64,000 nt of DNA from Candidatus Saccharimonadota bacterium (GTDB lineage Bacteria; Patescibacteriota; Saccharimonadia; Saccharimonadales; Saccharimonadaceae): NCBI GenBank assembly GCA_017432305.1, contig JAFRJK010000008.1, forward strand, positions 78,866-142,865, in the 5' to 3' direction. The notes under the pieces are model-generated. The model was not told the origin of the DNA. It saw only the letters and a list, made by a program, of their open reading frames with translations, and made no database searches. Both the position numbers and the translations under genes were made by a program. Positions 9,258 through 45,864 of the stretch are shown here, piece after piece; position 1 is the first letter of the stretch; the number at the start of each line of letters is the position of its first letter.

Positions 9258-9467
9258 TTGGATTTTTGGAGGGGTGGGAGATATTCTCGTAGTGATGGCC
9301 AAATTGCCATGCGGATAGTGGACGGTAACAAATGGGAGAATAAGGCTTTTAGCTCCACTAACGCTTGGAATACACATATGAACCATGCAGCTGGTGGCAC
9401 TGCATCGGTATGGGTTGAAACGAATAATTTTAGAGGAGACGGGTATTTCATCCGTTGCGCAACGGAT
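9258..9467 (+). repeat. FWRGG-IRC cassette E1
   Basis: Head TTGGATTTTTGGAGGGGTGGG at 9258-9278. Tail ATCCGTTGCGCAACGGAT at 9450-9467, shared with E2. Reads LDFWRGGRYSRSDGQIAMRIVDGNKWENKAFSSTNAWNTHMNHAAGGTASVWVETNNFRGDGYFIRCATD. Begins at TTG, not ATG, and has no SD. Confidence 0.85.
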
Positions 9468-9662
9468 AGGAAACCCGAACCCCCGATAATCTGACCAGCC
9501 ATGGTGCACAAAGGTAGTGCTGCCACCAGTATGCAGACCTAGATTAGCGTCAGCTGCACGATCGGACCCAGTAGCACGGTTATACCAAATTCGCCCCCAA
9601 GTAGTACGTACATGTACTTGACCGTAAGAATAATAATATTCCCCACCCCTCCAAAAATCCAA
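9450..9662 (-). repeat. FWRGG-IRC cassette E2
   Basis: Head rc at 9642-9662. Reads LDFWRGGEYYYSYGQVHVRTTWGRIWYNRATGSDRAADANLGLHTGGSTTFVHHGWSDYRGFGFPIRCATD. Converges on E1 and shares its tail palindrome. Confidence 0.85.
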
Positions 9663-9666
9663 CGGA

Positions 9667-9868
9667 TACGCAACGGATATTATTCCCATTACCACGATAA
9701 GGAATACCTTCTACCCAGATGTTAGTAGTAGTGCCATCAAAGCCAGTAGATAGATTAGAGCCATGTGTTGCACTATAAGCGAGATAAGCCCACCAATACC
9801 CAATCTCTATGCGAGCAAAAGCACCACCACTAGTCCGATAATAATACCCACCCCTCCAAAAATCCAAG
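9667..9868 (-). repeat. FWRGG-IRC cassette E3 (tandem with E2)
   Basis: Head rc at 9848-9868. Tail ATCCGTTGCGTA (rc of 9667-9678) abuts the TCCGTTGG lead-in of E2. Reads LDFWRGGYYYRTSGGAFARIEIGYWWAYLAYSATHGSNLSTGFDGTTTNIWVEGIPYRGNGNNIRCVS. An in-frame ATG at 9930 sits behind GAGGAG (9935-9940). Confidence 0.85.
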
Positions 9869-10003
9869 TAGATAACCATTTGCATTTTGTAACGCTTACG
9901 GTTATAATGAAAATACAAGTCGAGGTCCATAAAGCTCCTCGCCGTCACAAAATTTGACGTACACTCTGTGGACGAGGCATAAAGCCGACGAGCCCTAACC
10001 CCT

Positions 10004-10450
10004 CTAATTTGGAGGGGCGCACTTTTTTCTAGGTTTTCCTCGATAATTTGGGTTCATCGGGTATTCTCGCACTTTATCGACGATGTTATAAAAAATCTTT
10101 TCGGAAACAAGTCCGATCGGCTCATTTAAGCGTTTCGCTGAGTAGCGTTCGATTTGATTTAATAACGCATAAGTAGTTTCTCCGTCAACAATCACTTCCT
10201 CGGTCCAATTTTCATTCCTCTGTCTAGTCCTCGTAAAAGGAATGCCATAAAATAAGTGACCATTTATCTTACTAAAAACAAGCACTGGCCGGCGGAAAAG
10301 CTCGCCCTTCCCATCTTGCTCCGAGCCAATATTCACTCCGACCGAACACCACCAAATCTCTCCGTTATGAAACATAAATTCATACTCGCCTGCATTTAAC
10401 TTTTTCTTTATCCGATTCCATCCATCAAAATCTTTCTGATAATTTTCCAT
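10004..10450 (-). CDS. PemK/MazF-family toxin-like protein
   Basis: 148 aa. DFDGWNRIKKKL...GEIWWCSVGVNIGSEQDGKGELFRRPVLVFSK matches the long MazF/PemK subfamily (from memory). No recognisable antitoxin is adjacent. Confidence 0.6.
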   Translation of the reverse strand: MENYQKDFDGWNRIKKKLNAGEYEFMFHNGEIWWCSVGVNIGSEQDGKGELFRRPVLVFSKINGHLFYGIPFTRTRQRNENWTEEVIVDGETTYALLNQIERYSAKRLNEPIGLVSEKIFYNIVDKVREYPMNPNYRGKPRKKCAPPN

Positions 10451-10472
10451 AAATTCCTTTCATAGTGCATCA

Positions 10473-10678
10473 CCCAACGGATGATCCATCCAAGACCTCT
10501 CGGGCTATCGGCACTACCCGGGTATACCGTGGTCGAATTATATTGGTTGCCGGCATATATGCTTAGATAATTGCTCCTGTCACTATGGGTTGAACGGCGA
10601 GTTTGCCAGCGACCATGGGTCACACGATAATAGATAGCCCCAGACGTTTCATAATTCCCACCCCTCCAAAAATCCATT
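10473..10678 (-). repeat. FWRGG-IRC cassette E4 (degenerate tail; the only copy starting with ATG)
   Basis: Head rc at 10658-10678 reads ATGGATTTTTGGAGGGGTGGG. Reads MDFWRGGNYETSGAIYYRVTHGRWQTRRSTHSDRSNYLSIYAGNQYNSTTVYPGSADSPRGLGWIIRWV. Tail is ATCCGTTGGGTG. Confidence 0.8.
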
Positions 10679-10692
10679 CAGAGCAATATTAC

Positions 10693-11844
10693 TTAGAAAT
10701 AATACTCGTCCTCAATCGGCTCGTTAATTGCGCGTTTGATTAAGTCATATCTAAACCCCTGCCGAAGCAGATGTTGAATCAGTTTTCTATCGTCGTAACC
10801 TCTTCGACGTTTTTTTGCAATCACTTTTTTAATTTCAATTTCATCATCTCGGGCTTTCTCGCCGTTTTCATCCTCGCCCATCACCTCTTTAATAATATCT
10901 TCTGAGACACCTTTAACCCTAAGTTCGAGCCAAAGTTTTTTCTCCGACGTTCCTTTAATCCGGTTTCTATTTTCGACAAAATATTTTGCAAACGCCTCAT
11001 CATCAATCACTTTCATATCGATTAGTTTTGCAATTACTGCATCGATATCTTCATCTTTAATTGGTGCTGCTGGCTTTCTTGGCAAATTTGTTCTTGCGAA
11101 ACCACGATATTCAAAGCGGTTATCCGCATATTCTGAATCACGATCCACTCCAGTTGATTTTGCAAAACTATCCGTCCCTAAATCCTTATTTGAATCTGGG
11201 TTTTTCTTTCGTCTTTGCTCACGTTTCTCTTTTAGCTGTTCGTTCTTATCATGCACTTTTTGTCTAATTTCGCGAACCTCTTGGCGATATTCCTCGTCAT
11301 TCTCCAGTCGTTTTAAGAAGTCGTCATACCTTTGTTGTTCAATTTTACGTTTAAATTGTTTTCGACGAAGATAATTCCGAATTTCTCTCTCGGAATGTGG
11401 GCGCGTAAAAGCATACTCAAGTGTTCTTTGAAAAAGTTTTCCAAAATCGGATGCCGATTGAAACTCATTAATTTGTTCTCTTGTATAGACTTTCCCAACT
11501 CGGATTCCAAAATCAGACACCTGATTGATCGTTAAGGAAAAAGCAAATCTCCCACCAAGGAAAACATTAACGCGGTTTTTATCCTTTACTCCCGGACGAA
11601 GATCAGTGACTTCACGTGGGTTCATTCTCCCTCTTGGTCTTTTCGGAAATTTTAGCCCAGCGGTTTTGTCAATAAAATCATCTTCAAAATCCTCAAAATC
11701 ATCCACCTCATCATTATCATCCCCCTCATCTTCGAACTTGCCGAGTTTTTTATCTCGGAGATTTATAATTTCCACCAATTTTCTCCAAATAAATTTTTGA
11801 TAATTCCATGGCAGTTTTCGCAACCCGTAACGGCTCTTTTGCAT
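10693..11844 (-). CDS. recX: RecX-like regulatory protein (unusually long, 383 aa)
   Basis: Lies downstream of recA. Contains RecX-type helical repeats (FTRPHSEREIRNYLRRKQ; LELRVKGVSEDIIKEVM; RRGYDDRKLIQHLLRQGFRYDLIKRAI). The predicted start overlaps the NUDIX gene by 95 nt, so the true start is uncertain. Confidence 0.55.
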   Translation of the reverse strand: MQKSRYGLRKLPWNYQKFIWRKLVEIINLRDKKLGKFEDEGDDNDEVDDFEDFEDDFIDKTAGLKFPKRPRGRMNPREVTDLRPGVKDKNRVNVFLGGRFAFSLTINQVSDFGIRVGKVYTREQINEFQSASDFGKLFQRTLEYAFTRPHSEREIRNYLRRKQFKRKIEQQRYDDFLKRLENDEEYRQEVREIRQKVHDKNEQLKEKREQRRKKNPDSNKDLGTDSFAKSTGVDRDSEYADNRFEYRGFARTNLPRKPAAPIKDEDIDAVIAKLIDMKVIDDEAFAKYFVENRNRIKGTSEKKLWLELRVKGVSEDIIKEVMGEDENGEKARDDEIEIKKVIAKKRRRGYDDRKLIQHLLRQGFRYDLIKRAINEPIEDEYYF

Positions 11845-12316
11845 TTTTATCTATGAACGATGTAAATTCAGAAAGTGGAACCCATTTTACTTCGGAAACT
11901 TCTCTATCATCAAAGTGAAAATCATCTCCTCGCCCCGTCCAATCACAGATAAAGTAATTATTAATAAGGCTTCTTTGCATCCCATAAAGCGAGAAAAGAT
12001 ATCTTAAATCACTCTCTTTTATCTCGATTCCGATTTCCTCGCGAGCTTCTCGGATTGCCGCCTCGGTAATTGTTTCGCCATAATTCATATGACCGGCTGC
12101 CGAAATGTCCCACTTATTGGCGTTATGTACGAACTCAGAGCGATGTTGGAATAAGACTTCAATCCCATTTTTAGTTCTTCTATAGAGCCAAACATCAACC
12201 GCCCCGACCGCAAAATCTGAGCCCATACTCGGATTATCGAGTGCCGAATCGTACCCACCGTCTTTTAGAGGAATGCCAGAAAGACTATAAGCTTGCCATA
12301 ACTCCCCTTTATGCAT
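11750..12316 (-). CDS. NUDIX hydrolase
   Basis: Nudix box GHMNYGETITEAAIREAREEIGIEI. Confidence 0.8.
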   Translation of the reverse strand: MHKGELWQAYSLSGIPLKDGGYDSALDNPSMGSDFAVGAVDVWLYRRTKNGIEVLFQHRSEFVHNANKWDISAAGHMNYGETITEAAIREAREEIGIEIKESDLRYLFSLYGMQRSLINNYFICDWTGRGDDFHFDDREVSEVKWVPLSEFTSFIDKNAKEPLRVAKTAMELSKIYLEKIGGNYKSPR

Positions 12317-13347
12317 TAGTCTTCTTCCTCAGCTTTTGCGCGAACTTTTTTCTCAATTTCCGCCATCAACTTTGGATTTTCTTTGAATAGTTTCTTTACT
12401 GTCTCACGGCCTTGGCCAATTGTCTCGCCATTATATTTAAGGAATGCACCAGCTTTTTCAACTACGCCATATTGTACCGCGAGGTCGAGAATATCGCCGG
12501 TCTTTGAAATACCTTCATTATACATAATGTCGAACTCAGCTGTCCTAAATGGTGCCGCAATCTTGTTCTTCACAACTTTAACTTTTGTCCTGTTTCCAGA
12601 AACATCATCGCCATCTTTAATCTGTCCGATTCTACGAATATCAAGACGAACCGACGCATAGAATTTAAGCGCATTACCACCAGTAGTTGTTTCTGGATTT
12701 CCGAACATCACGCCAATCTTCATACGAATCTGGTTAATGAAAATAACTGTTGCTTTTGATTTTGCAATAATACCAGTGAGTTTACGCATTGCTTGTGACA
12801 TTAAGCGTGCTTGAAGCCCCATTTGTGCGTCACCCATATCACCATCAATTTCAGCTTGCGGAACGAGCGCTGCGACCGAGTCAACAACGATTAAGTCAAC
12901 CGCACCTGAACGAACGAGCGTCTCACAAATCTCGAGTGCCGATTCGCCGTTATCTGGTTGCGAAATTAAAAGATTTTCTGTGTCAACTCCGATGCGTTTT
13001 GCGTAAGCTGGGTCAAGTGCATGCTCTGCATCAATGAACGCAGCTTGGCCTCCGCCTTTTTGGACTTCAGAAATTGCATGAAGCGCAAGTGTAGTTTTAC
13101 CGGAAGATTCCGGGCCGTAGATTTCGATAATACGACCTTTTGGATACCCACCACCAAGTGCTAAATCAAGCGATAAAGAACCGGAAGGAATTAATTCGAC
13201 ATCGATTTTTCTCGTTTCACCGAGTTTCATAATCGAGCCTTCGCCGAATTGCTTGGTAATTTGTGCCACCGCAAGTTTTAGAGCTTCGTTCTTCCCGTCA
13301 TTTTTTTCTGCCTTTGTAGCCTTTTCAGTTTGAGTGGACTTTGCCAT
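12316..13347 (-). CDS. recA: Recombinase RecA
   Basis: GPESSGKTT Walker A and full RecA-family sequence. AGGAGG lies 7 nt upstream of the ATG at 13347 (MAKSTQ...). The ORF-track start at 13389 is unlikely. Confidence 0.95.
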
Positions 13348-13555
13348 TTTATACCTCCTAAATGTTATGTCTATTATATCATTCTTCACCCCAAAAATGA
13401 AGACAGGCTCTCTGATTTCGGCTACGGCTCTTTTGAGTAGAGCGCGTTGGTCTTTAGAACTTTAAGGCAGAAACCCTAACCCTAACGTAACAAATATTTT
13501 TTTATCCTGCAAGCACAAGGATTATGGAGTTTTACTTTTATGTTATAATATCTAT

Positions 13556-13777
13556 ATGATAAAAATTTATACCACTGATACTTGCGTCTATTGCCATGCT
13601 CTCATGGAGTGGCTTGATGAACAGGGAATTAAATATGAAGAATGTGACGCGAATCTAGACCCAACTATTTCTGGAGTCCCAGTCACTCGTATTGAAATGG
13701 CCGACGGTTCAATCCGTGAAATTATTGGTTTCGACCGTCCAGCGATCAAGAAAGCTTTAAAGGAATTAGCCGCCTAA
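13556..13777 (+). CDS. Glutaredoxin-like protein (NrdH-like)
   Basis: 73 aa with the CVYC redox motif in a thioredoxin-fold context. Leaderless: TATAAT at 13544-13549, 6 nt, then ATG. Confidence 0.7.
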   Translation: MIKIYTTDTCVYCHALMEWLDEQGIKYEECDANLDPTISGVPVTRIEMADGSIREIIGFDRPAIKKALKELAA

Positions 13778-13778
13778 A

Positions 13779-14516
13779 ATGAAAAAACCGAAGCTGCTCT
13801 TTGTTCATGGTTTCCGTGGGAATCATCTTGGCTTGAAAGAGACAAGAGATTATCTTGAAAATCTCGGTTATGATTGCTATGCTCCGGACATCCCACCAGC
13901 TTTTAATACTCAAGCCGAAAAAGTCCCAGAACTTGAAGGCTATACAGCCGACGCCTACGCAAAATGGATTGCTGATTATATTAAGATGCATAAACTAGAT
14001 CGCCCAATTTTAATTGGTCATTCGATGGGCTCGATTATCTCCGCTGCTACTGCCGAAAAATATCCAGATTTAATTAATGACAAAATTTTCTTACTTTCTC
14101 CGATTTGCGTCACCCCGCCGAAATTCATTTGTAATCTCGCTCCGCTTTCTGTCATCCTCCCGAATAAAATGATTGGTTATCTTACAACAAAATATCTTCT
14201 CATTAAAAAAGATAAAGAGACTCTAAAGAAAACCCTAGAACTTACCTATAAATGTACTGAGAAATTTACTTCAAAAAGAAACACTGGTCACGCTGCAAAA
14301 TTTAGTATTTCCTATGCCATCTCCGATTTTAATTTTAAAAAGAACTGCGTTTTTATCGCTGGCGATACTGATAAGTTAAATAGCAGAGATCAAGTAAAAT
14401 CCGTCGCAGAAAAATTTGGCACTGAACCGATTTTTATCGAAAAATCCGGCCATCTTATTAACTATGAAGAGCCAATAAAACTTGCTGAAATAATTGCCGA
14501 AAAATTAGAAGACTAA
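13779..14516 (+). CDS. Alpha/beta-fold hydrolase
   Basis: LFVHGFRGNH oxyanion region and the nucleophile elbow GHSMGS. Confidence 0.75.
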   Translation: MKKPKLLFVHGFRGNHLGLKETRDYLENLGYDCYAPDIPPAFNTQAEKVPELEGYTADAYAKWIADYIKMHKLDRPILIGHSMGSIISAATAEKYPDLINDKIFLLSPICVTPPKFICNLAPLSVILPNKMIGYLTTKYLLIKKDKETLKKTLELTYKCTEKFTSKRNTGHAAKFSISYAISDFNFKKNCVFIAGDTDKLNSRDQVKSVAEKFGTEPIFIEKSGHLINYEEPIKLAEIIAEKLED

Positions 14517-15058
14517 ATCCATTTAATAAGGCGCTTATATTCTTCAGAGTCTTTTTCGTATGAGTCAAGAATATCTTCGGTATAAGTTTTTCCGTTCGAG
14601 ATATTTAAAGTTTCAACTTCTGGGCAAGACGCAAGTAGTCTAATAATTGCCTCGTCAGTATCAATATTCGTCATTGATTTCCTTTTGTCAGTGGAGTGCG
14701 AATGAACGCGGAGTTCTTTATAAACGAACCTCTTGATTCCCGCTTGGAGACAATGTTTAAGACAATTCTCACAAGTTGCAATCATATTATAAAGCGTACA
14801 ACCAGTTAGATCCCTTCCTGCAAAAATTAGCGCGTTCATCTCCGAATGAATCGCAAAATAATATTTCATCGGGCGTTCTGAAAGCGTCATTTTTGATTCG
14901 TCCGCACCTTGGATTGTTCCGTTGTAACCGAAAGAAACTGGTCGCTTTTTTTCATCAACGATTACACACCCATTTTTTGAAGACGGATCCTTTGATTTCT
15001 TCGCAACCGTCTCTGCGATTTCCATGAAATATTCGTCCCAAGACATCTTTTTGTCCAT
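14513..15058 (-). CDS. Deoxycytidylate (dCMP) deaminase / ComEB family
   Basis: HSEMNAL ... CENCLKHCLQAGIKRFVY is the zinc-binding CDA motif (H-x-E, C-x2-C). Confidence 0.8.
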   Translation of the reverse strand: MDKKMSWDEYFMEIAETVAKKSKDPSSKNGCVIVDEKKRPVSFGYNGTIQGADESKMTLSERPMKYYFAIHSEMNALIFAGRDLTGCTLYNMIATCENCLKHCLQAGIKRFVYKELRVHSHSTDKRKSMTNIDTDEAIIRLLASCPEVETLNISNGKTYTEDILDSYEKDSEEYKRLIKWI

Positions 15059-15203
15059 CTTAAAAACCTCTTATTTTCTTTAGTATATCACAAAATAAAA
15101 AACTAGCGCCCCTTAAAACGCTCATGCTTGTCATGTTAAAAAATCTTTGTTAGTATGGGGAAGGCTTAAGAGACTAGAATTAAATATTTAACGAGGAGTA
15201 TTT

Positions 15204-16910
15204 ATGAGGTCTCTTTTTAAAATCTCTCTATTATTTTCTATCCCAATTTTAATTTTCATATCTAGTACTAACGTTAGTTCGAAGGAAGCTGAATCTTGCT
15301 CTGATTTTGAATTCATCTTCGCGCGCGGTTCCGGTCAAAATCTAAACGACACCGACTTTAAAGCGTTTAAATCTGCAATTTCCACGAAATTGAGTGGCTA
15401 TTCGTTCAATATCTATGAACTTGGTCAAGATGGAACTAGTGAAAGTTACCCAGCGATTAGTGTCGCTAATTTTAAAGCGATTAGCGTCTTCCTCTCGGCT
15501 GGAAAATCTTATGAGTTTAGTGAGTCGGTCGAGAAAGGTGTGAAAGAATTAAAATCCCGTATCGTCTCCGAATTGAAAAGATGTAAAAATAAAAAATTCA
15601 TTCTCGCTGGCTATTCCCAGGGTGCGTTAGTAATAAACTATACTCTCCCAGATATTGACGCAAATAAAATCGTCTATGCCGCAACTTTTGGCGATCCAAA
15701 GCTCTACCTCCCAGAGGGGAAGAACCCAAAAAGCACCGCTTGTAAGAATATCGGTCTTTCAAACTATCGCATCTATGTCCCAGATTGCTATGTTGAGGAA
15801 GGTATTCTTACTGCCTTGAAACCTTATCAACAGCCCGAATATCTCGATAAACTTGGAGCCTTTTGTAATATCAATGACTTTATGTGTGGCTCGAATCTTA
15901 ATATTTTAAACCCGATGGAAGGCCACACAGCTTATAATTCTAAGAATGGTTACGAAAAATTTGCGGAGATTATTCTTGAGAAAATTAAATTAACAAGTGG
16001 TGAAAGTCCTAAGAACAAGACCGATATTTCTTTAGAAACAACCTCTACCTATTCCGCCTCCCGCCCGAAAGATATTGTTGTGCTTTTTGATTGTACGCAA
16101 TATGTTCTCGGTTCGGAATTGCTAAAAGAACAAAAGGCAATCGTCGACAGCCTAAGGGATAAGCTTGTTGGCTACGCCGAACATGGCGCAAGAGTCGCCG
16201 TCGCTAATGCTTGTTCCGTCTCGAATAAATTTGATGGTTACAGTTACTCGAACTTCGATATATGGGTTCCGTTCACAAGTAATAGTCTTTGCGCAAGAAT
16301 CGACGAATTTAACCTCCATCATTTCCAAAACGTTTTCCGCTATCAACTAAATAATAATTACAATAATATCTATTCTGCAATTCGCCAAGCCATAAAACTT
16401 GATACCTGGCGTAACGGTGCAGATAAACATATTATCGTCATCACACATACTAATTATTCATCCGCGAAAAGTGCCGATGGGACTGGTGCTAACACGGTAA
16501 TTGAATCCGCGAAAGATGCCGGGGTAAAAATTTCATTTGTCACTAGCAACACTTTAAAAAATGATCCAAATTATCTCAATATTATTAGCGAAACTAGTGG
16601 AATAAATATTGGTGATGATTTTTCAAAGATTAAATTTTCGAGGAACGCTATTTCGGAAGAAAAAACGAAACTTTTCATGAAAGAAATTAGCTTGAACCAA
16701 AGTTCCGAATATAGTGTCATTGTCGTAAACGATGTTGTCTATGGCTATTCGCGTGAGAAAACTTTGAAGATTATCGGACTCGATGCCTCACGAAAAAACG
16801 TAATAAAAGTTATTGGATATAACGCCGCCGGTGAAAGAATTTCCGATAAAACTTATAATATTAATCCTGAAAATATTGGCGCCCCAGATTGTGGCACTGC
16901 TTTAGACTAG
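15204..16910 (+). CDS. Secreted cutinase-like serine esterase fused to a vWA-like domain
   Basis: Signal peptide. CSDFEFIFARGSGQ and GYSQGA are cutinase-family hallmarks. The C-terminal half (IVVLFDCT...IIVITHTN) looks vWA-like. Confidence 0.55.
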   Translation: MRSLFKISLLFSIPILIFISSTNVSSKEAESCSDFEFIFARGSGQNLNDTDFKAFKSAISTKLSGYSFNIYELGQDGTSESYPAISVANFKAISVFLSAGKSYEFSESVEKGVKELKSRIVSELKRCKNKKFILAGYSQGALVINYTLPDIDANKIVYAATFGDPKLYLPEGKNPKSTACKNIGLSNYRIYVPDCYVEEGILTALKPYQQPEYLDKLGAFCNINDFMCGSNLNILNPMEGHTAYNSKNGYEKFAEIILEKIKLTSGESPKNKTDISLETTSTYSASRPKDIVVLFDCTQYVLGSELLKEQKAIVDSLRDKLVGYAEHGARVAVANACSVSNKFDGYSYSNFDIWVPFTSNSLCARIDEFNLHHFQNVFRYQLNNNYNNIYSAIRQAIKLDTWRNGADKHIIVITHTNYSSAKSADGTGANTVIESAKDAGVKISFVTSNTLKNDPNYLNIISETSGINIGDDFSKIKFSRNAISEEKTKLFMKEISLNQSSEYSVIVVNDVVYGYSREKTLKIIGLDASRKNVIKVIGYNAAGERISDKTYNINPENIGAPDCGTALD

Positions 16911-17107
16911 TTTTTCTTTGAAGAAAGATGATAGTGATCGCCGTACTCGCACTTATAAACTGAAAGTTCTGGCGCATCATGATCGTATTGCGCTACCTTT
17001 GCCGCTACTTCCGCCTCTTCGCGGGTATCATAAGAAATCTTCTGTGTCTCTCCAACCCAGCATTTCTTCGGCTCGTACACCCCTAAATTCTGGTTCACTT
17101 TTCTCAT
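16907..17107 (-). CDS. Small hypothetical protein (66 aa)
   Basis: ORF with a TATAAT about 21 nt upstream on the minus strand. No family recognised. Confidence 0.35.
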   Translation of the reverse strand: MRKVNQNLGVYEPKKCWVGETQKISYDTREEAEVAAKVAQYDHDAPELSVYKCEYGDHYHLSSKKN

Positions 17108-17198
17108 AACTTATCTAGAAAAACATTATATCCCACATCTCAAAAATTATAAAGTGCTATAATAATGGCGGAATAATATAAGATAAAAAGAGGGAAAA

Positions 17199-17768
17199 AT
17201 GAGAAAACACGGGTGCAATTCTGTTTATTTTGGTAGCGAAAAGAAAATTTTAAAAGCTTTTTCGAAAGTTCTAGTAGAGACGCGCTCTGTTAATGTAAAA
17301 ACTCGCCAGATTTCGAAAGCCGCTGGTATTGCGAATTCGTCATTTTATATTCACTACCACTCCCTCACAGATTTAATCGAGAAAAATGAAGAGAAAATTC
17401 TTGATGGCCTCAACCTTGAGGTTCGAAAAATGGCTAGAAAGGATTGTTCGCTCGAGCAAGCTTATCGGAATATTCTTCTTTATCTCTATAAACACCGTGA
17501 TTTTTTAGATATTATTATGAAAATTAAAAATGTTGAAACACCAATGAAAATTCTCCGTTATATTAAGCCACTTATTGATGAGAATTGGGAACGTTTTGGT
17601 GATAAAGTCAGCGAATATATCTTCTTACAATTCTCCTTTACTGCGATGGTAGAATTTTTAACCTGGCAAAGCGAACGTTATTCGCTTGAAAAAATCGGGA
17701 AGCACGCACATAACCTCGCTAACCTCACCATCTCCGCTCCGAGTTATTTCGGAAAACTTTATTACTAA
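17199..17768 (+). CDS. TetR-like transcriptional regulator
   Basis: N-terminal HTH-like TRQISKAAGIANSSFYIHYHSLTDLI and typical TetR size. Confidence 0.5.
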   Translation: MRKHGCNSVYFGSEKKILKAFSKVLVETRSVNVKTRQISKAAGIANSSFYIHYHSLTDLIEKNEEKILDGLNLEVRKMARKDCSLEQAYRNILLYLYKHRDFLDIIMKIKNVETPMKILRYIKPLIDENWERFGDKVSEYIFLQFSFTAMVEFLTWQSERYSLEKIGKHAHNLANLTISAPSYFGKLYY

Positions 17769-17907
17769 CCACCATAAATAGTGTTTGAGCCTAGTCTAAA
17801 AACGCTAAATATCGGGGTTGACTTTTAAATTTTTCATTTTGTACTACCTCTGAACGACGCTAGAAAAAATGTAGTAAATATTACAACAAAATATAAGCAT
17901 TTTCATA

Positions 17908-17960
17908 TTGACACCACACATATAGTGCCATAAAATAGAAACAGACACTAGATATAGCGT
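17908..17960 (+). promoter_or_regulatory. nrdD promoter (TTGACA-17-TAAAAT) with two candidate NrdR boxes
   Basis: TTGACA at 17908-17913 and TAAAAT at 17931-17936. Box 1 ACCACACATATAGTGC at 17913-17928 and box 2 ACACTAGATATAGCGT at 17945-17960, 32 bp centre to centre, compared with the consensus acaCwAtATaTwGtgt. Confidence 0.45.
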
Positions 17961-18054
17961 CGGAAGGTTACAGGAAAATATTCCAAACAACAATTAATAA
18001 TAAATAAAAACCACAAAAAATATAATTTGGACACGAAACTAGGAGGTAATTTTT

Positions 18055-20412
18055 ATGTTCAAAAAAATCCAGAAGCGAGACGGGAAAATCGTCAACTTCA
18101 ACCCCGAAAAAATCGTTGATGCTATCGCTGCGGCCGGTAGTGCAACGGAGGAATTTAAATATGATCGCGCGAAACAACTTGCTGAAAAAGTTGTAAAAGT
18201 TGCGGAAGATGAAATTAAAGTCCGTACCCCGAAGGTCGAGCAAATCCAAGATATTGTTGAACAAGTCTTAATGGAATCGAGTTTCAAACGTACCGCAAAG
18301 GCCTACATTACTTATCGTCAAGAGCGAAACCGCACTCGCGATGCAAAATCTAACCTTATGGAAGCTTACAAAAAGATTTCGCTCGCTGATGCTTCGGAAG
18401 ATTCCGACATTAAACGCTCAAACGCAAACGTTGATGGAAACTCTGCTATGGGTAAAATGCTTCAATTCGGGGCTGAGGGCTCGAAGGAATTTGCAAAAAC
18501 CGTATTAATGGACCCGCGCTTTGCCGCTGCTCATGATAACGGTGACATCCACATTCATGATCTCGACTTTTATGCCACCGGAACCCTAACCTGTTGCCAA
18601 ACCGACCCACTTATTCTCTTTGCCGACGGCGGTTTTAATACCGGCCACGGTCACCTACGCACTCCAAATTCGATTGGTTCCTATGCTGCGCTCGCCGCAA
18701 TTATCCTCCAAGCGAACCAAAACGAACAACACGGTGGCCAATCTATCCCTAACTTTGACTACGCAATGGCTCCAGGTGTTGATAAAACCTTTAAGAAATC
18801 CTTAAGACGTAATCTTGAAAAATATACCGAATTCACCGGAAAGAAACTTAAAATTAAAATCCCTGAAGACATCAAATTCGGTGAAGACGAGCGTTTAAAG
18901 AAACTTAAAGTTCCTGAAAGTGTGATTAAAACCTCAAGCGAAGATACTGAAAAACAAACTCTCCAAGCTATGGAAGGTTTTATCCACAATCTTAACACAA
19001 TGCACTCTCGCGCTGGTGCACAAGTGCCATTCACTTCAATTAACTTCGGTACTGACACTTCCGATTCCGGCCGTCTTGTCTCGAAATACTTACTCGAGGC
19101 AACTATGAATGGTCTTGGAAAAGGTGAAACCCCAATCTTCCCAATCTCGATTTTCAAGGTTAAAGAAGGTGTAAACTATAATCCAGAAGATCCAAACTAC
19201 GACCTCTTCAAACGTTCAATGGAAGTCTCCGCAAAACGTCTTTTCCCGAACTTTACCTTTATCGACGCTCCATTCAACCTTCAATATTATAAGAAGGGCG
19301 ACTATCGTACTGAAATCGCGACGATGGGCTGTCGTACTCGCGTCTTTGGCTCCTGCTTCCCAGAATCCGACGGTATCGTCACTGGCCGCGGTAATTGTTC
19401 CTTCACTACGATTAACCTCGTCCGTCTCGGTATTAAACATGGAATTTGTTTGAAAGAACGCAAAGAAGCTGATTGGTCTGGTTTCTATAAAAACCTTGAC
19501 GAAATGATGGACCTCGTTAAAGACCAACTTCTTGAACGTTTCGAATTCCAAGCAAACCAACATGTTCGCAATTTCCCATTCCTCATGGGGCAAGGGAACT
19601 GGTTCGGTTCCGAGAAACTTGGTTGGAACGATACTCTTCGTGACGTAATTAAACACGGAACCCTCTCGATTGGCTTTATTGGTCTCGCTGAGTGTCTCGT
19701 TGCTATGACTGGAAAACACCACGGCGAATCTGATGAATGTCAGGAACTCGGTCTCGACATTATCACTCACATGCGTGAACGTTGTGATGATTATACGAAG
19801 AAATATAAATTAAATTTCTCGCTTCTCGCAACCCCGGCTGAAGGTCTTGCTGGTCGCTTCACAAAGATTGACCGTAAAGAATACGGAAAAATTAAAGGTG
19901 TTACCGACCGTGACTTCTATACAAACTCCTTCCACGTTCCAGTTTATTATCCAATTTCTGCCTTTGAGAAAATCGACAAAGAAGCTCCATATCATAATCT
20001 TTGTAACGCTGGTCACATTTCCTATATCGAGCTTGATGGCGATCCAAGCGACAACATCGAAGCCTTTGAAGCTGTGATTCGTCACATGCACGATACTGGT
20101 ATCGGCTATGGCTCCGTAAACCACCCAGTCGATCGCGACCCAGTTTGTGGTTTCGCCGGAATCATCAAAGGGAATCGTTGCCCAAGCTGTGGTCGTAAGG
20201 AAGATGATGTCCTCTTCGAGAGACTCCGCCGTATTACTGGTTACCTTGTCGGCTCACTCGAACGTTGGAACGATGGCAAGAAAGCTGAAGAGGCTGCCCG
20301 CGTTAAGCACGATGTCTGTCTATGTGACAAAGACGGTGTCTATTCGAAAGCTGAAAAAGCCGCTCGTGAAAAAGCAAAAAGAACTTCAAGGAAAGCTCTA
20401 GGAAAAGCATAA
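18055..20412 (+). CDS. nrdD: Anaerobic ribonucleoside-triphosphate reductase (class III), with ATP-cone
   Basis: 785 aa with an N-terminal ATP-cone, a CPSCG zinc site and the glycyl-radical motif RRITGYL. AGGAGG is the RBS. Confidence 0.95.
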   Translation: MFKKIQKRDGKIVNFNPEKIVDAIAAAGSATEEFKYDRAKQLAEKVVKVAEDEIKVRTPKVEQIQDIVEQVLMESSFKRTAKAYITYRQERNRTRDAKSNLMEAYKKISLADASEDSDIKRSNANVDGNSAMGKMLQFGAEGSKEFAKTVLMDPRFAAAHDNGDIHIHDLDFYATGTLTCCQTDPLILFADGGFNTGHGHLRTPNSIGSYAALAAIILQANQNEQHGGQSIPNFDYAMAPGVDKTFKKSLRRNLEKYTEFTGKKLKIKIPEDIKFGEDERLKKLKVPESVIKTSSEDTEKQTLQAMEGFIHNLNTMHSRAGAQVPFTSINFGTDTSDSGRLVSKYLLEATMNGLGKGETPIFPISIFKVKEGVNYNPEDPNYDLFKRSMEVSAKRLFPNFTFIDAPFNLQYYKKGDYRTEIATMGCRTRVFGSCFPESDGIVTGRGNCSFTTINLVRLGIKHGICLKERKEADWSGFYKNLDEMMDLVKDQLLERFEFQANQHVRNFPFLMGQGNWFGSEKLGWNDTLRDVIKHGTLSIGFIGLAECLVAMTGKHHGESDECQELGLDIITHMRERCDDYTKKYKLNFSLLATPAEGLAGRFTKIDRKEYGKIKGVTDRDFYTNSFHVPVYYPISAFEKIDKEAPYHNLCNAGHISYIELDGDPSDNIEAFEAVIRHMHDTGIGYGSVNHPVDRDPVCGFAGIIKGNRCPSCGRKEDDVLFERLRRITGYLVGSLERWNDGKKAEEAARVKHDVCLCDKDGVYSKAEKAAREKAKRTSRKALGKA

Positions 20413-27404: not shown

Positions 27405-27418
27405 CCCCAAAAATCCTA
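27405..27418 (-). repeat. Truncated cassette head remnant
   Basis: The rc reads TAGGATTTTTGGGG and is preceded by conserved spacer S1. The body is missing and tRNA-Thr lies 45 nt further on. Confidence 0.6.
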
Positions 27419-27465
27419 CAGAGCAATATTAGCTGTCTTTAATATTAAAGTTTAATTTTACTCCG
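27419..27465. repeat. Head-to-head junction spacer S1 (47 nt, AT-rich)
   Basis: Reverse complement of S2 (29050-29096) with one mismatch. Confidence 0.85.
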
Positions 27466-27674
27466 TTGGATTTTTGGAGGGGTGGGCAATATGATCGAAG
27501 CTCCGGTAAAGTCGGTGCTCGCCTTTCTCACTTTTGGTCATTTACGCGTTTTTACACATATAGCGAGCTTGGTCGAATATCAATTGTTGCTACTTGGATT
27601 GAAAACAGTACTGGTCTAATTACTTTTGGCACAATGTATGGCGGACATGGAGGTCGTATCCGTTGCGCACGGAT
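27466..27674 (+). repeat. FWRGG-IRC cassette E5
   Basis: Head at 27466-27486. Reads LDFWRGGQYDRSSGKVGARLSHFWSFTRFYTYSELGRISIVATWIENSTGLITFGTMYGGHGGRIRCARI. The 17-nt tail ATCCGTTGCGCACGGAT is shared with E6. Confidence 0.85.
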
Positions 27675-27863
27675 AGAAATCCCACGACCTTTATATTCAG
27701 AAGTACCAGCTACTATATAGCCAGCATTATTTACGATTGACAGTATGAGTAGTTCGCCTCTCTCAGTAATATAGTCCCTATAGATCTGATAATACCCGCC
27801 AATTGCACGGTTATTAACTCCACCCCACGAACGAGTATAGTCCCCACCCCTCCAAAAATCCAA
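27658..27863 (-). repeat. FWRGG-IRC cassette E6
   Basis: Head rc at 27843-27863. Reads LDFWRGGDYTRSWGGVNNRAIGGYYQIYRDYITERGELLILSIVNNAGYIVAGTSEYKGRGISIRAQRI. The Cys is lost through the 1-nt-short palindrome. Confidence 0.85.
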
Positions 27864-28814: not shown

Positions 28815-28860
28815 TTGGATGTTTGGTAGGCATGGCAGTCGCATCCGTTGCACAACGGAG
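28815..28860 (+). repeat. Collapsed cassette Ec (degenerate head fused to tail)
   Basis: TTGGATGTTTGGTAGGCATGG (head-like) plus 7 nt plus ATCCGTTGCACAACGGAG (tail shared with E7). The interior is deleted. Confidence 0.6.
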
Positions 28861-29049
28861 AGGACCGCCATAACCTCGATAATAATAACTCGTAACCCAA
28901 ACACTAGCAAAGCTAGAAGTAACATCTGCGTACAAGCGGGAACTATATTCGGCGTTTATAGCTCGGCGCGACCACCACTGGAAATATCTCCCGCGATTAC
29001 AAACATTCCCGCTAACAGGACAATACAACCCACCCCTCCAAAAATCCAA
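28843..29049 (-). repeat. FWRGG-IRC cassette E7
   Basis: Head rc at 29029-29049. Reads LDFWRGGLYCPVSGNVCNRGRYFQWWSRRAINAEYSSRLYADVTSSFASVWVTSYYYRGYGGPLRCATD. Confidence 0.85.
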
Positions 29050-29096
29050 CGGAGTAAAATTAAACTTTAATATTAAAGAAAGCTAATATTGCTCTG
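29050..29096. repeat. Head-to-head junction spacer S2
   Basis: CGGAGTAAAATTAAACTTTAATATTAAAGAAAGCTAATATTGCTCTG. It is the inverted copy of S1 and is homologous to S3 and S4. Confidence 0.85.
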
Positions 29097-29303
29097 TAGT
29101 ATTTTTAGAGGGGTGGGTATTATGCACGGTCTAGCGGTAGCGTTACTAGTCGCGCCCGTAATAGTTATGGGTGGACTAATAGAGCAGGTAGTGCTACTTC
29201 TTCGTTCGGCCTAATCATGCATCCGCATAATGATCAAGGATTTATAGAATCATCTGCCAATTTCAACCGTGGCCATGGATGGTTTCTCCGTTGCGCAACG
29301 GAT
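29097..29303 (+). repeat. FWRGG-IRC cassette E8 (two TAG stops in the head)
   Basis: Head is TAGTATTTTTAGAGGGGTGGG. The remainder is open: RGGYYARSSGSVTSRARNSYGWTNRAGSATSSFGLIMHPHNDQGFIESSANFNRGHGWFLRCATD. Confidence 0.85.
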
Positions 29304-29492
29304 AGAATTCCCCCACGCTCTTTTGTTATTAGCTTGAGGCCAAACATAGGGGTCATCATCATTTATACCAGTGTCTAAAAGATTATGATGAGTACTTGCT
29401 GTAGCCGTACGGTACGTCATATATCCTCCAGTTGTGCGACCTCGAGGTCTGCCATAGCTACTACTATAACCCCCACCCCTCCAAAAATCCAA
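29286..29492 (-). repeat. FWRGG-IRC cassette E9
   Basis: Head rc at 29472-29492. Reads LDFWRGGGYSSSYGRPRGRTTGGYMTYRTATASTHHNLLDTGINDDDPYVWPQANNKRAWGNSIRCATE. Shares its tail with E8. Confidence 0.85.
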
Positions 29493-29648
29493 CGGAGCAA
29501 GAAGCTGATAAAAAGTAAGTTTACTTACTTTTTAGAAGCGACGCAGGTCCGTCTATAGCGAAGCTAGACGGAGCAAGAAGCTGTCTAAAGCTAAGTTAGA
29601 CGAGGCACTTTTAGACATAACGAGAAAAATATTGTATAATAAACATTA

Positions 29649-31541: not shown

Positions 31542-31748
31542 TTGGATTTTTGGAGGGGTGGGAGATATAAATACAATTCCGGCATAATAGAAAGCCGCCT
31601 CGGACTTAGTGAGTGGTGGGAATTAGTTGCATATTCAGATAACGGCGGGTATTATTTTGATACTTACGATGGCCCCGAAACGTCGTCAGTATGGACTCCG
31701 GGAAGATATAGAAGAGGCCTAGGGCTATTTCTCCGTTGCACAACGGAG
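31542..31748 (+). repeat. FWRGG-IRC cassette E10 (solo)
   Basis: Head at 31542-31562. Reads LDFWRGGRYKYNSGIIESRLGLSEWWELVAYSDNGGYYFDTYDGPETSSVWTPGRYRRGLGLFLRCTTE. Tail is CTCCGTTGCACAACGGAG. Confidence 0.85.
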
Positions 31749-33008: not shown

Positions 33009-33209
33009 TACGCAACGGATATTCATCCCAAATCCCCTATTGTTTCCACCTGAGTTCCAAATACTAGCTTTACCACCGCTAGCAATAGTATTCATATGGG
33101 AACCTTGATAATTAGTGGTTGCATTATTGCCCCACCAAACGCCTGCATGTATGCGCCCGAAAATATTCGCAGAGCCATAAGCTTGACTCCCACCCCTCCA
33201 AAAATCCAA
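33009..33209 (-). repeat. FWRGG-IRC cassette E11
   Basis: Head rc at 33189-33209. Reads LDFWRGGSQAYGSANIFGRIHAGVWWGNNATTNYQGSHMNTIASGGKASIWNSGGNNRGFGMNIRCV. The tail starts on the base after the grpE stop. Confidence 0.85.
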
Positions 33210-33251
33210 TCGGAACAATATTACTATAATACTAAAACTAATTATGCTCTG
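33210..33251. repeat. Head-to-head junction spacer S3
   Basis: TCGGAACAATATTACTATAATACTAAAACTAATTATGCTCTG. It contains a TATAAT. Confidence 0.8.
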
Positions 33252-33466
33252 TAGTATTTTTGGAGGGGTGGGTATTACGATCGCGAAGGTGTTGGTCGCA
33301 TTTCAAATCGCATTTCCTATAGCGCCTTTCTAACAAATTACCAATTTGAAGTTGGGCCGAACAATGGCGCCGCTCTCGTTTCTCGAATTGGTGATGGAAC
33401 TACCGTAACGTGGGTGCCAGGGATTTCTAACAAGGCGTTTGGGTTTTCTATCCGTACGCAACGGAT
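33252..33466 (+). repeat. FWRGG-IRC cassette E12 (TAG at the first head codon)
   Basis: Head is TAGTATTTTTGGAGGGGTGGG. Reads YFWRGGYYDREGVGRISNRISYSAFLTNYQFEVGPNNGAALVSRIGDGTTVTWVPGISNKAFGFSIRTQR. Confidence 0.85.
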
Positions 33467-33652
33467 AGCAATTCCATAACTTCTGTTGCTAGTAGAATAA
33501 AAGAAATGAGCAGTGCCGTTCGTATCATATTTCGAGTTTAGATAGTATGCCGTTGTAGCTCCAGCAGCAACTTTCATCCATGACCTACCGCCTTCAAGTC
33601 GTCCCACAACAGCACCATTAACACCATACTGACCACCCCTCCAAAAATCCAA
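33450..33652 (-). repeat. FWRGG-IRC cassette E13
   Basis: Head rc at 33632-33652. Reads LDFWRGGQYGVNGAVVGRLEGGRSWMKVAAGATTAYYLNSKYDTNGTAHFFYSTSNRSYGIAIRCVRI. Confidence 0.85.
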
Positions 33653-33697
33653 TCGGAACAATATTACTATAATATTAAAAGAACTAATTATGCTCTA
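33653..33697. repeat. Head-to-head junction spacer S4
   Basis: TCGGAACAATATTACTATAATATTAAAAGAACTAATTATGCTCTA. About 90% identical to S3 by eye. Confidence 0.8.
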
Positions 33698-33897
33698 TTA
33701 GATTTTTGGAGGGGTGGGTACTATACTAGGTCATTTGGCGCTGCTAGTAGCCGTAACGCGAGTGGATTTTGGTGGGCGGGTTATGCTCTTGGTGGATCTA
33801 GCCGTGTACTAAATACTGGCATCACCGATGGGGGATATACTGGACCGCAAAGTGAATACCATGCTGGTGGAGGACTCTATATCCGTGCGCAACGGAT
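33698..33897 (+). repeat. FWRGG-IRC cassette E14 (TTA at the first codon)
   Basis: Reads LDFWRGGYYTRSFGAASSRNASGFWWAGYALGGSSRVLNTGITDGGYTGPQSEYHAGGGLYIRAQR. There is no start codon in frame. Confidence 0.85.
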
Positions 33898-34089
33898 GAA
33901 GAACCCCCAGGTCCTGCGGTTGTTTGCCGGCACATAAACACTAACTTTTGAACCTTCGTTTTGAATATCAGAAGCTAGATACCAAGCTTTTTCTTCCGAA
34001 CCAGCAACACTAGTCCACCAGTTCCCCCATGTTGTACGGTCACGGATAATGATATTAGACCAATAAGTCCCACCCCTCCAAAAATCCAA
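33881..34089 (-). repeat. FWRGG-IRC cassette E15
   Basis: Head rc at 34069-34089. Reads LDFWRGGTYWSNIIIRDRTTWGNWWTSVAGSEEKAWYLASDIQNEGSKVSVYVPANNRRTWGFFIRCARI. Confidence 0.85.
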
Positions 34090-34128: not shown

Positions 34129-34734
34129 ATGGATGAGAGAGTAGAAAAAATCAAAGCTTGGCTTGGGACTGGCAGTATCAACATTTTTGGACTTCCAATG
34201 AGCGGAAAAGACACCGTCGGTCTCCGCCTTGCGAAAATGTTAGGCGCCGAATTTTTATCTTCCGGCGAAATAATCCGCGAATATGAAGATAAACAAAACG
34301 ACCACATGACCGAAAACGGAAAGCTGATCCCGACCGATAAATTCTACGACATTGTTCTTCCATATTTTCACAATGAAGATTTAAAAGATAAGCCTCTAGT
34401 TTTAAGTTCAATCGGCCGTTGGGAAGGCGAAGAGGATGAGGTAATTGAAAACGCAAAACGAGCTAACCACGAAATAAAAGCCGTTATTCATCTCGATTTG
34501 GCTGAAGAAGATGTTAGAGAGCGCTGGAAGGCAGCGAAAGAACTCGGCGATCGTGGAATTCGTGGTGACGATGCTGACCCGAAAGTTTTTGAAACGAGAA
34601 TCAAAGAGTTCCACGAAAAAACTATCCCGGTTTTAAATCACTACTATGAACTCGGAGCTCTAATTGAAGTCGATGCAAGCGGTACTCGTGACGAAGTCTT
34701 TGAAAATGTCTTAAACGCCTTAAGTGTGCTATAA
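34129..34734 (+). CDS. Adenylate/nucleoside-monophosphate kinase-like protein
   Basis: P-loop FGLPMSGKDTVG, then SSGEIIRE and a LID-like RGDD. Divergent from canonical Adk. Confidence 0.55.
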   Translation: MDERVEKIKAWLGTGSINIFGLPMSGKDTVGLRLAKMLGAEFLSSGEIIREYEDKQNDHMTENGKLIPTDKFYDIVLPYFHNEDLKDKPLVLSSIGRWEGEEDEVIENAKRANHEIKAVIHLDLAEEDVRERWKAAKELGDRGIRGDDADPKVFETRIKEFHEKTIPVLNHYYELGALIEVDASGTRDEVFENVLNALSVL

Positions 34735-34744
34735 TGGACTTATT

Positions 34745-41939: not shown

Positions 41940-41959
41940 TTAGAAACTTAGGAGGTAAA

Positions 41960-42748: not shown

Positions 42749-42769
42749 CGCTTATGGTATAATAGAACT

Positions 42770-43546: not shown

Positions 43547-43594
43547 CTTTTTTGCATTTTTTCACGAAATACTATACAATAAAAAAAGATACAA

Positions 43595-44689: not shown

Positions 44690-44698
44690 GTGGTAAAA

Positions 44699-45139: not shown

Positions 45140-45150
45140 TTATCACTCTG

Positions 45151-45361
45151 CTACGCAACGGATTGAAAGACCACTTCCCCGCCGGTCGCCATCTCCTGTA
45201 TTACTCATAGAAATATTAGTTGTTCCAGCGTCTTGTCCGGTTACGAGACAAGCTGCGGAGTCATTAGAAAAGGTATATTTTCCTCTGTAGCGCCCATTAG
45301 ATAAGCGCCCCCAAATACCACCCATGCTACGACCATAAGCCCCACCCCTCCAAAAATCCAA
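45151..45361 (-). repeat. FWRGG-IRC cassette E16
   Basis: Head rc at 45341-45361. Reads LDFWRGGAYGRSMGGIWGRLSNGRYRGKYTFSNDSAACLVTGQDAGTTNISMSNTGDGDRRGSGLSIRCVAE, then a stop. Confidence 0.85.
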
Positions 45362-45433
45362 TGGAGCAAGAAGCCTCTAAAGAGGTTAGAGGGGTTGTTT
45401 TTTTTAGATTTTTTAGTATAATAATAAAGACTT

Positions 45434-45511
45434 GGTGGGATTAGCTCAGATGGTTAGAGCGTCTGATTGTGGTCCAGAAGGTCGTCGGTTCGATCCCGAT
45501 ATCCCACCCCA
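45434..45511 (+). tRNA. tRNA-His (anticodon GTG) with encoded G-1 and CCA
   Basis: G-1 plus GTGGGAT/ATCCCAC acceptor, C73, loop TTGTGGT, T-arm GGTTCGATCC. Confidence 0.85.
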
Positions 45512-45550
45512 GTAAGAACCGAGCAAACGAGAAAGTTCATTTTCTCACTT

Positions 45551-45625
45551 GCGAGTGTAGTACAGCGGTTAGTATGCAAGTTTTCCAAACTTGAGATGAG
45601 GTTTCGACTACCTCCACTCGCACCA
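45551..45625 (+). tRNA. tRNA-Gly (anticodon TCC), CCA encoded
   Basis: GCGAGTG/CACTCGC acceptor, anticodon arm CAAGT-TTTCCAA-ACTTG, T-arm GAGGT-TTCGACT-ACCTC. Confidence 0.9.
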
Positions 45626-45627
45626 AA

Positions 45628-45650
45628 AACCCTTCGGGGTTATTTTTGTT
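45628..45650 (+). terminator. Intrinsic terminator (UUCG loop) after the tRNA pair
   Basis: AACCC-ttcg-GGGTT followed by ATTTTTGTT. It ends 7 nt before the E17 head. Confidence 0.7.
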
Positions 45651-45656
45651 GTTCTC

Positions 45657-45864
45657 TTGGATTTTTGGAGGGGTGGGTATTATTCTAGTTCGAACGGTGG
45701 TATTTGGGGTCGCATTATAGCAAAATTCATGCGGACGAAGGTGACCGTAGACGGCGATCGTAGTGGCGACATTAATACTGGTGTGATGAGTGGCGAGACT
45801 ACCACTTTCGTAGCTTCATCTTGGGCAGACCCTCGAGGTGCGGGGTATTTTATCCGTTGCGTAG
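45657..45864 (+). repeat. FWRGG-IRC cassette E17
   Basis: Head at 45657-45677. Reads LDFWRGGYYSSSNGGIWGRIIAKFMRTKVTVDGDRSGDINTGVMSGETTTFVASSWADPRGAGYFIRCVA, then a stop. Confidence 0.85.

Follow-up and report, generated by a model that had tools for sequence, protein, structure and literature searches.

Start-less lectin-module cassettes in a Saccharibacteria genome as probable silent donors for a retroelement-diversified surface protein

Introduction

What are 17 short coding elements, all opening with nearly the same 21-nt sequence and only one of them with ATG, doing between the housekeeping genes of a streamlined genome? The elements lie in a stretch of 64,000 nt, here called the window, from contig JAFRJK010000008.1 of a Candidatus Saccharimonadota bacterium (assembly GCA_017432305.1), and are numbered E1 to E17 along it. 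Saccharibacteria are obligate epibionts and must attach to host bacteria. To our knowledge, adhesin variation in this group is largely unknown. The 17 elements are probably silent donors, 5′-truncated copies of the variable module at the C-terminus of a single surface protein. The same module is the variable region (VR) of a diversity-generating retroelement (DGR). A more tentative proposal, held with somewhat less than even confidence, is a two-tier programmed diversification that combines DGR variation of adenine-encoded positions around one scaffold with an archive of at least 17 selected, silent scaffolds, which would be exchanged wholly or segmentally by faithful recombination anchored at the cis boundaries of the DGR.

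Features of the Cassette Family

A scan of the window for the 21-nt head, TTGGATTTTTGGAGGGGTGGG, reproduces exactly the 17 elements at the coordinates given by the original prediction. All 17 copies have at most three mismatches, 11 are exact, and 100 shuffles give none. The same 17 copies are returned by nhmmer with a cassette profile, with no additional full copy in the window. The frame read from each head comprises 64–69 codons and ends in (I/L)R(C/A/T/W). It contains no stop in 1015 codons, and the alternative frames of the cassettes contain 37 and 101 stops in the forward direction and 30, 57, and 74 in reverse. The near-invariant head and the open frames described earlier are thus borne out. 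The value of exactly 207 nt claimed for some copies depends on the placement of the ends; the span from the head to the Cys codon is 192–207 nt.

The cassette interiors are strongly diverged, with a median pairwise nucleotide identity of 51%. The head codons, unlike the interiors, are identical even at synonymous and third positions. The conserved unit reaches at least 7 nt 5′ of the head, as TGCTCYG lies upstream of every head, and a decayed TAAT..TG is present further 5′. Orthologous copies of E2, E12, and E13 from other genomes, when pooled, have 16.5 synonymous and 15.5 nonsynonymous changes, which gives a pN/pS of 0.30 with a significant synonymous excess (p=0.0014). The cassettes are under purifying selection. 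Their interiors are not neutral sequence with random stops, given the absence of in-frame stops and this ratio.

The single ATG head is that of E4, and the cassettes have no Shine-Dalgarno site; both points agree with the original prediction, as do the TAG codons in the heads of E8 (two) and E12 (one). The heads of E8, E12, and E14 have TAG or TTA in the start position. Past the ..IRC end, the reading frame runs on for 3–80 residues with no conserved stop. A promoter scan finds no full sigma-70-type promoter in the spacers between cassettes, and both lepA and hrcA have one. The TAAT boxes 5′ of the heads were also considered as −10 elements of leaderless genes, with the spacers as invertible promoters. 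This candidate was rejected, because the same bases are the codons L-N-G-A-P in the full-length gene described below and because the promoter scan is empty.

These features bear on two other explanations. It is very unlikely that the cassettes are independent small proteins of about 70–140 aa with a leaderless TTG or ATG start. Gene callers pick several of them (P0001, P0003, P0126, P0129), E4 has an ATG with a TAATAT box 8 nt 5′, and purifying selection fits translation. However, the TAG and TTA codons of E8, E12, and E14, the lack of a full promoter, and the lack of a conserved stop past the IRC end do not fit such genes, and the conservation of synonymous sites in the head points to a constraint on DNA rather than on protein. 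The second explanation, a mobile element similar to miniature inverted-repeat transposable elements or repetitive extragenic palindromes, or else a structured non-coding RNA family, is hardly credible. It would match the dispersed intergenic positions, the inverted pairs with a palindromic centre, and the conserved ends. In contrast, the cassettes have a strong coding signature and share homology with a protein domain; a transposase is missing from the 40 window ORFs scanned, and the elements showed no target-site duplications. Rfam and tRNA scans of the window give only five tRNAs and no Rfam family at the cassettes.

The exact 20-mer of the head has no match in 185,579 GTDB species genomes, six chance-like matches in JGI metagenomes, and two matches in viral contigs. 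A word-indexed search of 5.8 billion proteins returns only five cassette proteins. Cassettes of this kind are nearly invisible to gene callers and HMM libraries, which is a practical warning.

Relation to the FISUMP Domain

A search of the 17 cassette peptides against Pfam and NCBIfam with hmmscan gives no match at E≤10. A six-frame search with the cassette profile leads to the C-terminus of a 490-aa open reading frame (ORF) in the closest GTDB species (L010:6339-7811), which has a TIGR02145 (FISUMP) score of 48.3 bits against a cut-off of 41.65. Homology search from this ORF finds hundreds of full-length Saccharibacteria relatives that end in ..PLNFxLxGxY....KGxGFSVRCVAI*, and a precomputed PF09603 match is present in most of the 120 homologues listed. 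Since the cassette profile matches the C-termini of full-length FISUMP relatives, the cassette appears to be the C-terminal ~40% of the lectin-like FISUMP domain. The resemblance to TIGR02145/PF09603 that had been proposed from the peptide pattern therefore holds only indirectly, by way of the full-length relatives, and not by direct search with the peptides.

The N-terminal half of the domain (..CPxGWRLP..) is absent from the cassettes, which start at ..LDFWRGG. It was not found elsewhere in the window by tblastn either, as had been predicted. Between lepA and hrcA the window has E10 alone; in the closest GTDB species, two full-length FISUMP genes occupy this position. Against PDB sequences, the profile returned a fucose-lectin repeat as its sole result, which was judged spurious and set aside. 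Four giant proteins of 1.6–6 kaa (P0135, P0136, P0163, and P0173) contain 4–12 tandem stretches that match the cassette profile. The cassette module may thus also be an internal repeat in other proteins.

The Full-Length Gene and Its Retroelement

An exhaustive profile search finds many small ORFs that start at the head, as well as full-length proteins, notably P0131. This protein of 564 aa comprises an N-terminal membrane anchor, an Ig-like domain, and a FISUMP domain, and it reads ..NWLNGAPLDFWRGG...GFYIRCVARQ* towards its end. It has the N-terminal motif that the cassettes lack, in the form ..ICPKGWQLP... Its TIGR02145 score of 41.4 bits is just below the cut-off and covers profile positions 38–174 of 176. 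In an AlphaFold2 model of P0131, residues 497–564 form six confident β-strands that are packed on the N-terminal half of the domain. A stand-alone fold of the 68-aa module is disfavoured because these strands belong to the C-terminal domain, and this packing also argues against independent small proteins. A Foldseek search with the full-length model mainly reflected the N-terminal Ig/pilin-like domain and was uninformative on the lectin domain.

The original prediction would have the head at the junction of a full-length gene, and such a gene, that of P0131, exists on another contig. In the target gene (L060:10001-11695), the junction ..NGAPLDFWRGG.. is encoded by TGCTCCGTTGGATTTTTGGAGGGGTGGG and the tail is ATCCGTTGCG. 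The head with its seven upstream bases reads G-A-P-L-D-F-W-R-G-G. The decayed TAAT..TGCTCYG of the cassettes corresponds to ..CTTAATGGTGCTCCG of the target gene, and as these bases are coding there, the pre-head bases of the cassettes are coding remnants and not promoters.

The target gene is followed by a 331-aa ORF, a reverse transcriptase gene, and an inverted 268-nt repeat, which is the template repeat (TR). The best PDB match of the reverse transcriptase is 8ub7 (4e-24); the 331-aa accessory ORF does not recognisably match Avd. The TR and the VR of the target gene are identical at 118/118 non-A positions and differ at 17/51 A positions. Their homology starts at TTTGGAGGGGTGGG, within the head. 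The VR tail is ATCCGTTGCGTAGCGCGCCAG and the TR has ATTCGTTGTGTGGCGAGGCAG, in the manner of an initiation of mutagenic homing site (IMH) and its template counterpart (IMH*), with a GC hairpin located 3′. With a reverse transcriptase, A-specific TR/VR mismatches, and IMH/IMH*, the locus on L060 and L069 is a bona fide DGR, and its VR is the last 68 codons of the target gene. The head and tail of the cassettes are the TR/VR homology boundaries of this DGR, with the tail as the start of the IMH. The original prediction did not include a DGR, and a recipient of this kind was unexpected.

Two features of the locus stand apart. The TR is on the strand opposite to the reverse transcriptase and target genes and is convergent with the former (L060:12773-14540), a layout that seems unusual for DGRs. 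A cassette tail with its IMH and GC hairpin stands by itself between the reverse transcriptase gene and the TR (L060:13938-14018, −). It is 98% identical to the downstream flank of the VR and has no variable region before it.

Accession series, co-occurrence, and composition make it very likely that the DGR locus and the window are parts of one metagenome-assembled genome (MAG). The DGR proteins MBQ6486328-391 (locus tags IJI76_) and the aspartyl-tRNA synthetase adjoining the window, MBQ6486732, are from one NCBI series. The DGR set and the synthetase are each found on 23–29 contigs of one study. L060 and the window correlate in tetranucleotide composition at r=0.967.

Cassettes Compared with Retroelement Targets

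The 17 cassettes match the TR at 50–66% of non-A positions, whereas the true VR and an orphan VR at L060:547-750 match it at 118/118. The product of the ORF of E3 is identical on 27 contigs and that of the ORF through E7 on 25, and the target protein has 13 alleles. The window cassettes are not current DGR targets, as is evident from their low TR match at non-A positions and their invariance across contigs. They also lack the GC stretch of the IMH and the hairpin. Their 5′ flank is of the VR type and is not in the TR.

The orphan VR on L060/L069 is different. It is a truncated 3′ copy of the target gene between rplU and an H+-PPase gene, 10 kb 5′ of the target gene, and it retains its IMH intact together with ~60 nt of the coding sequence further 5′. 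Two samples show 24 differences over 11.5 kb, every one of them within this orphan, which is an active DGR target.

An active orphan, and the coincidence of the head and tail with the limits of DGR information transfer, would be expected if the cassettes were remote VRs now diversified by the DGR, or insertions of DGR cDNA. That origin is extremely unlikely for the window copies, in view of their low non-A match against 100% for true VRs, the invariance of E3 and E7, the VR-type 5′ flank, and the missing GC stretch and hairpin.

Replaced Variable Regions at the Expression Site

The alleles of the target protein form one 90%-identity cluster, and ten of them have the same N-terminus. The cluster includes nine full-length TR-type alleles, which vary at Asn codons, and one truncated TR-type fragment. 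In P0278, found on five contigs that reach 203 kb, the common N-terminus is joined to an unrelated VR. The VRs of P0281 and P0277 are likewise unrelated, but these two proteins come from related strains with slightly different N-termini.

The contig L069, which carries the P0278 allele, is 99.8–99.99% identical to L060 over 21.7 kb outside the VR interior. Between GGGGTGGG and CGTTGCG, the two interiors are wholly different. Over its first 72 nt, the L069 VR matches an orphan cassette on L074 at 100% nucleotide identity; this orphan has a B-type leader and an antisense head 5′ of it. The other ~135 nt match an orphan on L071, again at 100%. These segments join at TTTGGTGG, and every A is kept. 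In the second case, the VR of P0281 equals the orphan P0149 over 72/72 aa. The N-terminus of P0149, MVILFR, is a translated orphan leader, GTAATATTGTTCCGA, as is found at E11 and E13.

As the adenines are kept, the transfer is one of DNA recombination and not of mutagenic retrohoming. The direction is probably from orphan to expression site, which is parsimonious because the allele is a chimera of two orphans that exist separately. The IMH is intact in L069, so the DGR could overwrite its VR. On L070 (7190-7408), the same VR as in L069 is followed in one sample by the IMH*-type sequence CGTTGTGTGGCGAGGCAG and a VR-type distal flank. One may speculate that the IMH* in L070 blocks DGR retrohoming and locks it out, or that it is an assembly artefact.

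The silent donor cassettes of the original prediction are supported by the junction gene, the exact head-to-tail swaps, the 100% chimera of two orphans, and purifying selection. The orphans are presumably silent, and it is likely that the window's own 17 copies act as donors in addition to their relatives. Several points weigh against this assignment. None of the 17 window cassettes was seen at the expression site, and the donors are siblings from other samples. Donor and recipient were not met together in a single assembled genome, so we only infer the direction and non-reciprocity of the transfer. The DGR contig and the window are only very likely from one MAG, on accession series, co-occurrence, and composition. 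The tail homology of ~10 nt is short for a RecA-type exchange. A donor role also leaves unexplained the tail-to-tail palindromic packing of the cassettes and the TTG/TAG asymmetry of their spacers, both described below. In principle, the shared head and tail could lead a metagenome assembler to fuse an orphan interior with the flanks of the expression site. Against such a chimera, P0278 recurs on its five contigs and combines two orphans.

Strain Comparison and Possible Decay

E12 is 93% identical to its orthologue in strain L007, with nine synonymous and three nonsynonymous changes, and E13 is 98.8% identical. The E12–E13 pair and the adjacent spacer form a block of ~97% identity between the window and L007, whereas the flanking cassettes are unrelated. 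The homology between the window and L007 breaks exactly at heads. Between two samples, three clustered changes in the head and leader of E4 comprise nearly all differences in 10.4 kb.

The cassettes could also be non-functional relics, decaying orphan VRs that arose each time the 3′ end of the DGR target gene was duplicated, with the few matches to expression-site alleles due to occasional accidental recombination. This is unlikely, though it has some foundation. A recent truncated orphan exists at L060:547-750 and is still hit by the DGR, the coding sequence 5′ of the window heads is decayed, the Cys codon is lost in three cassettes, and three have no start or a TAG. However, relics would not be expected to keep 1015 codons free of stops at ~50% divergence with a pN/pS of 0.30. 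The head and tail are kept at 100% while their surroundings are decayed. E2 is 89% conserved at the nucleotide level in another genome (L068), where its neighbours are different. Silent donor copies remain the preferred explanation.

Arrangement of the Cassettes

The cassettes are found in both orientations, as pairs, tandems, and solo copies. In five pairs the tails meet at the palindrome ATCCGTTGCG|CAACGGAT, an arrangement that is absent from the original prediction. The palindrome is 18 nt in two pairs and 17 nt in three, so that one partner of each of the three ends in IRA or IRT. Three pairs are head to head, with AT-rich spacers of 42–47 nt that have TTG at one end and TAG, TGA, or TTA at the other.

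Along the window, E1 (9258..9458, +, from head to Cys codon) is tail to tail with E2 (9459..9662, −). E3 (9670..9867, −) is in tandem with E2. E4 (10474..10677, −), with the sole ATG head, ends in IRW and adjoins a MazF-like gene.

A degenerate head remnant, CCCCAAAAATCCTA (27405..27418, −), and a 47-nt spacer (27419..27465) lie before E5. E5 (27466..27666, +) is tail to tail with E6 (27666..27863, −), which ends in IRA, at a 17-nt palindrome. At the tail of E7 (28852..29049, −) there is a truncated partner remnant at approximately 28815..28851 (+), with the palindrome CCGTTGTGCAACGG at 28845. The head-to-head spacer of 47 nt between E7 and E8 (29050..29096) ends in TTG and TAG. E8 (29097..29294, +), which has the head TAGTATTTTTAGAGGGGTGGG, is tail to tail with E9 (29295..29492, −). 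The pre-head leader AGCTTCTTGCTCCG occurs twice 5′ of E9, at window positions 29493-29580; the copies are 75 nt apart and the first one is headless. E10 (31542..31739, +) lies between lepA and hrcA and has a tail palindrome remnant 3′ of it.

E11 (33012..33209, −) and E12 (33252..33458, +) are head to head across a 42-nt spacer (33210..33251), which has the opposite orientation in strain L007. E12 has a TAG head, ends in IRT, and is followed by E13 (33458..33652, −). A 45-nt head-to-head spacer (33653..33697) leads from E13 to E14 (33698..33889, +), which has a TTA head and ends in IRA; L007 has a different cassette at this position. E15 (33889..34089, −) comes next.

The last two cassettes are solo. 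E16 (45155..45361, −) ends in IRCVAE* and has GGIWGR in common with the DGR template. A leader similar to AGCTTCTTGCTCCG, namely GGCTTCTTGCTCCA, lies 5′ of E16 at window positions 45362-45375. E17 (45657..45860, +) ends in IRCVA*, and its first ~50 nt after the head resemble the template repeat.

The alternating orientation, the heads as 21-nt inverted repeats, the asymmetric spacer ends, and the inverted E11|E12 spacer of L007 are what a shufflon or inverton would have. In such a system, a site-specific recombinase would invert the DNA between opposed heads and so switch the cassette at a start or promoter. This is highly improbable here. A scan of 40 window ORFs found no tyrosine or serine recombinase (Phage_integrase, Resolvase), transposase, or reverse transcriptase, with ~15 further ORFs outside the scan. 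The Rci/Hin-type recombinase whose presence was to be checked is missing both from these 40 ORFs and from the DGR locus. The expression gene is on another contig, and spacers of 29–47 nt are too short to invert alone. At the level of gene calls, no structural variants of the arrays were found, as the calls around them are alike in 20/20 lepA contigs, 18 of which were collapsed as similar places. The allele change is itself a replacement and not an inversion, since the interior is replaced and both flanks are unchanged.

Proposed Mechanism

The homologies common to a cassette and the expression site are only the head plus 7 nt (TGCTCCG-TTGGATTTTTGGAGGGGTGGG) and the tail ATCCGTTGCG. The head plus 7 nt holds the GC-rich 5′ limit of the TR/VR homology, and the tail is the IMH start. 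Faithful recombination may occur at the head (17–28 nt) and tail (~10 nt), or at internal microhomology such as TTTGGTGG. The expressed VR would be wholly or partly replaced by a cassette through gene conversion, which is possibly segmental. The enzymes would presumably be those of general recombination, for which the window has recA, recX, and ruvAB.

The lectin tip would thereby gain scaffolds beyond the reach of adenine mutagenesis from a single TR. With the IMH intact, the DGR could later overwrite the VR with TR-type sequence. Under the two-tier proposal, conversion of the IMH to IMH*, as in L070, would lock the DGR out. The tail-to-tail palindromes are possibly mechanistic, for example in cruciform formation or break initiation.

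Comparison with Known Systems

The Neisseria pilE/pilS, Borrelia vlsE/vls, Anaplasma msp2, and Treponema tprK systems have, like the present one, a single expression site and many promoter-less, 5′-truncated donors. Their conserved flanks surround a variable core, the donors are dispersed or clustered, in both orientations, and stable, and the expression alleles are mosaics of donor segments joined at microhomologies. In contrast to these systems, the host here is an epibiont of the Candidate Phyla Radiation (CPR)/Patescibacteria, and the module is a C-type-lectin-like FISUMP tip. The flanking homologies are only 28 and ~10 nt, the segment is also a DGR VR, and cassettes are tail to tail at a perfect palindrome.

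DGRs such as those of BPP-1 Mtd, Treponema TvpA, and the CPR have A-specific mismatches, IMH/IMH*, a downstream GC hairpin, and a C-terminal CLec-type VR, as is the case here. The truncated orphan VR that is also diversified is comparable to multiple or remote targets. Unlike in DGRs, the 17 cassettes are neither TR-matched nor hypervariable, and adenines are all retained on transfer into the VR. Those DGR surveys that could be searched yielded no report of a store of VR scaffolds unlike the TR. R64-type shufflons and Mycoplasma vsa/vpma resemble the cassettes in having alternating silent segments of surface proteins bounded by a short conserved coding site. Here, by comparison, the expression site lies apart from the cassettes, the segment is replaced rather than inverted, and the search for a recombinase was negative.

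No prior description of this cassette system was found in the literature searched. The data point to the first cassette-type variation system of the pilS/vls kind in the CPR, acting on the 68 codons that the DGR also targets. If this is true, a single ligand-binding module can be served by both classic routes to targeted protein hypervariation, namely templated mutagenesis and donor-cassette conversion, and ~3.5 kb of 'intergenic' DNA in a streamlined genome is explained.

Genomic Context

The neighbours of the cassettes in the window are housekeeping genes, namely yebC, a mazF-like gene, recX, recA, trxB, lepA, hrcA, grpE, adk, tyrS, tpiA, and ruvAB. The relatives of the window's GrpE are gut or rumen Candidatus Saccharibacteria. 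ENA has contigs 100% identical to window positions 1-19930, and more than 20 samples from a single study contain the species.

The MazF/PemK-like toxin gene (window 10004-10677) has no recognisable antitoxin. E4, with its ATG start and an 89-aa ORF that overlaps the toxin start, sits at the expected position of the antitoxin. A stand-alone HNH endonuclease ORF adjoins tRNA-Met (window 6397-6915, −). The phosphoketolase (XFP) is present as two abutting ORFs, with XFP_N at 34724-35761 and XFP plus XFP_C at 35761-36945. The identical split is called in an ENA contig, which suggests a split gene or a conserved frameshift.

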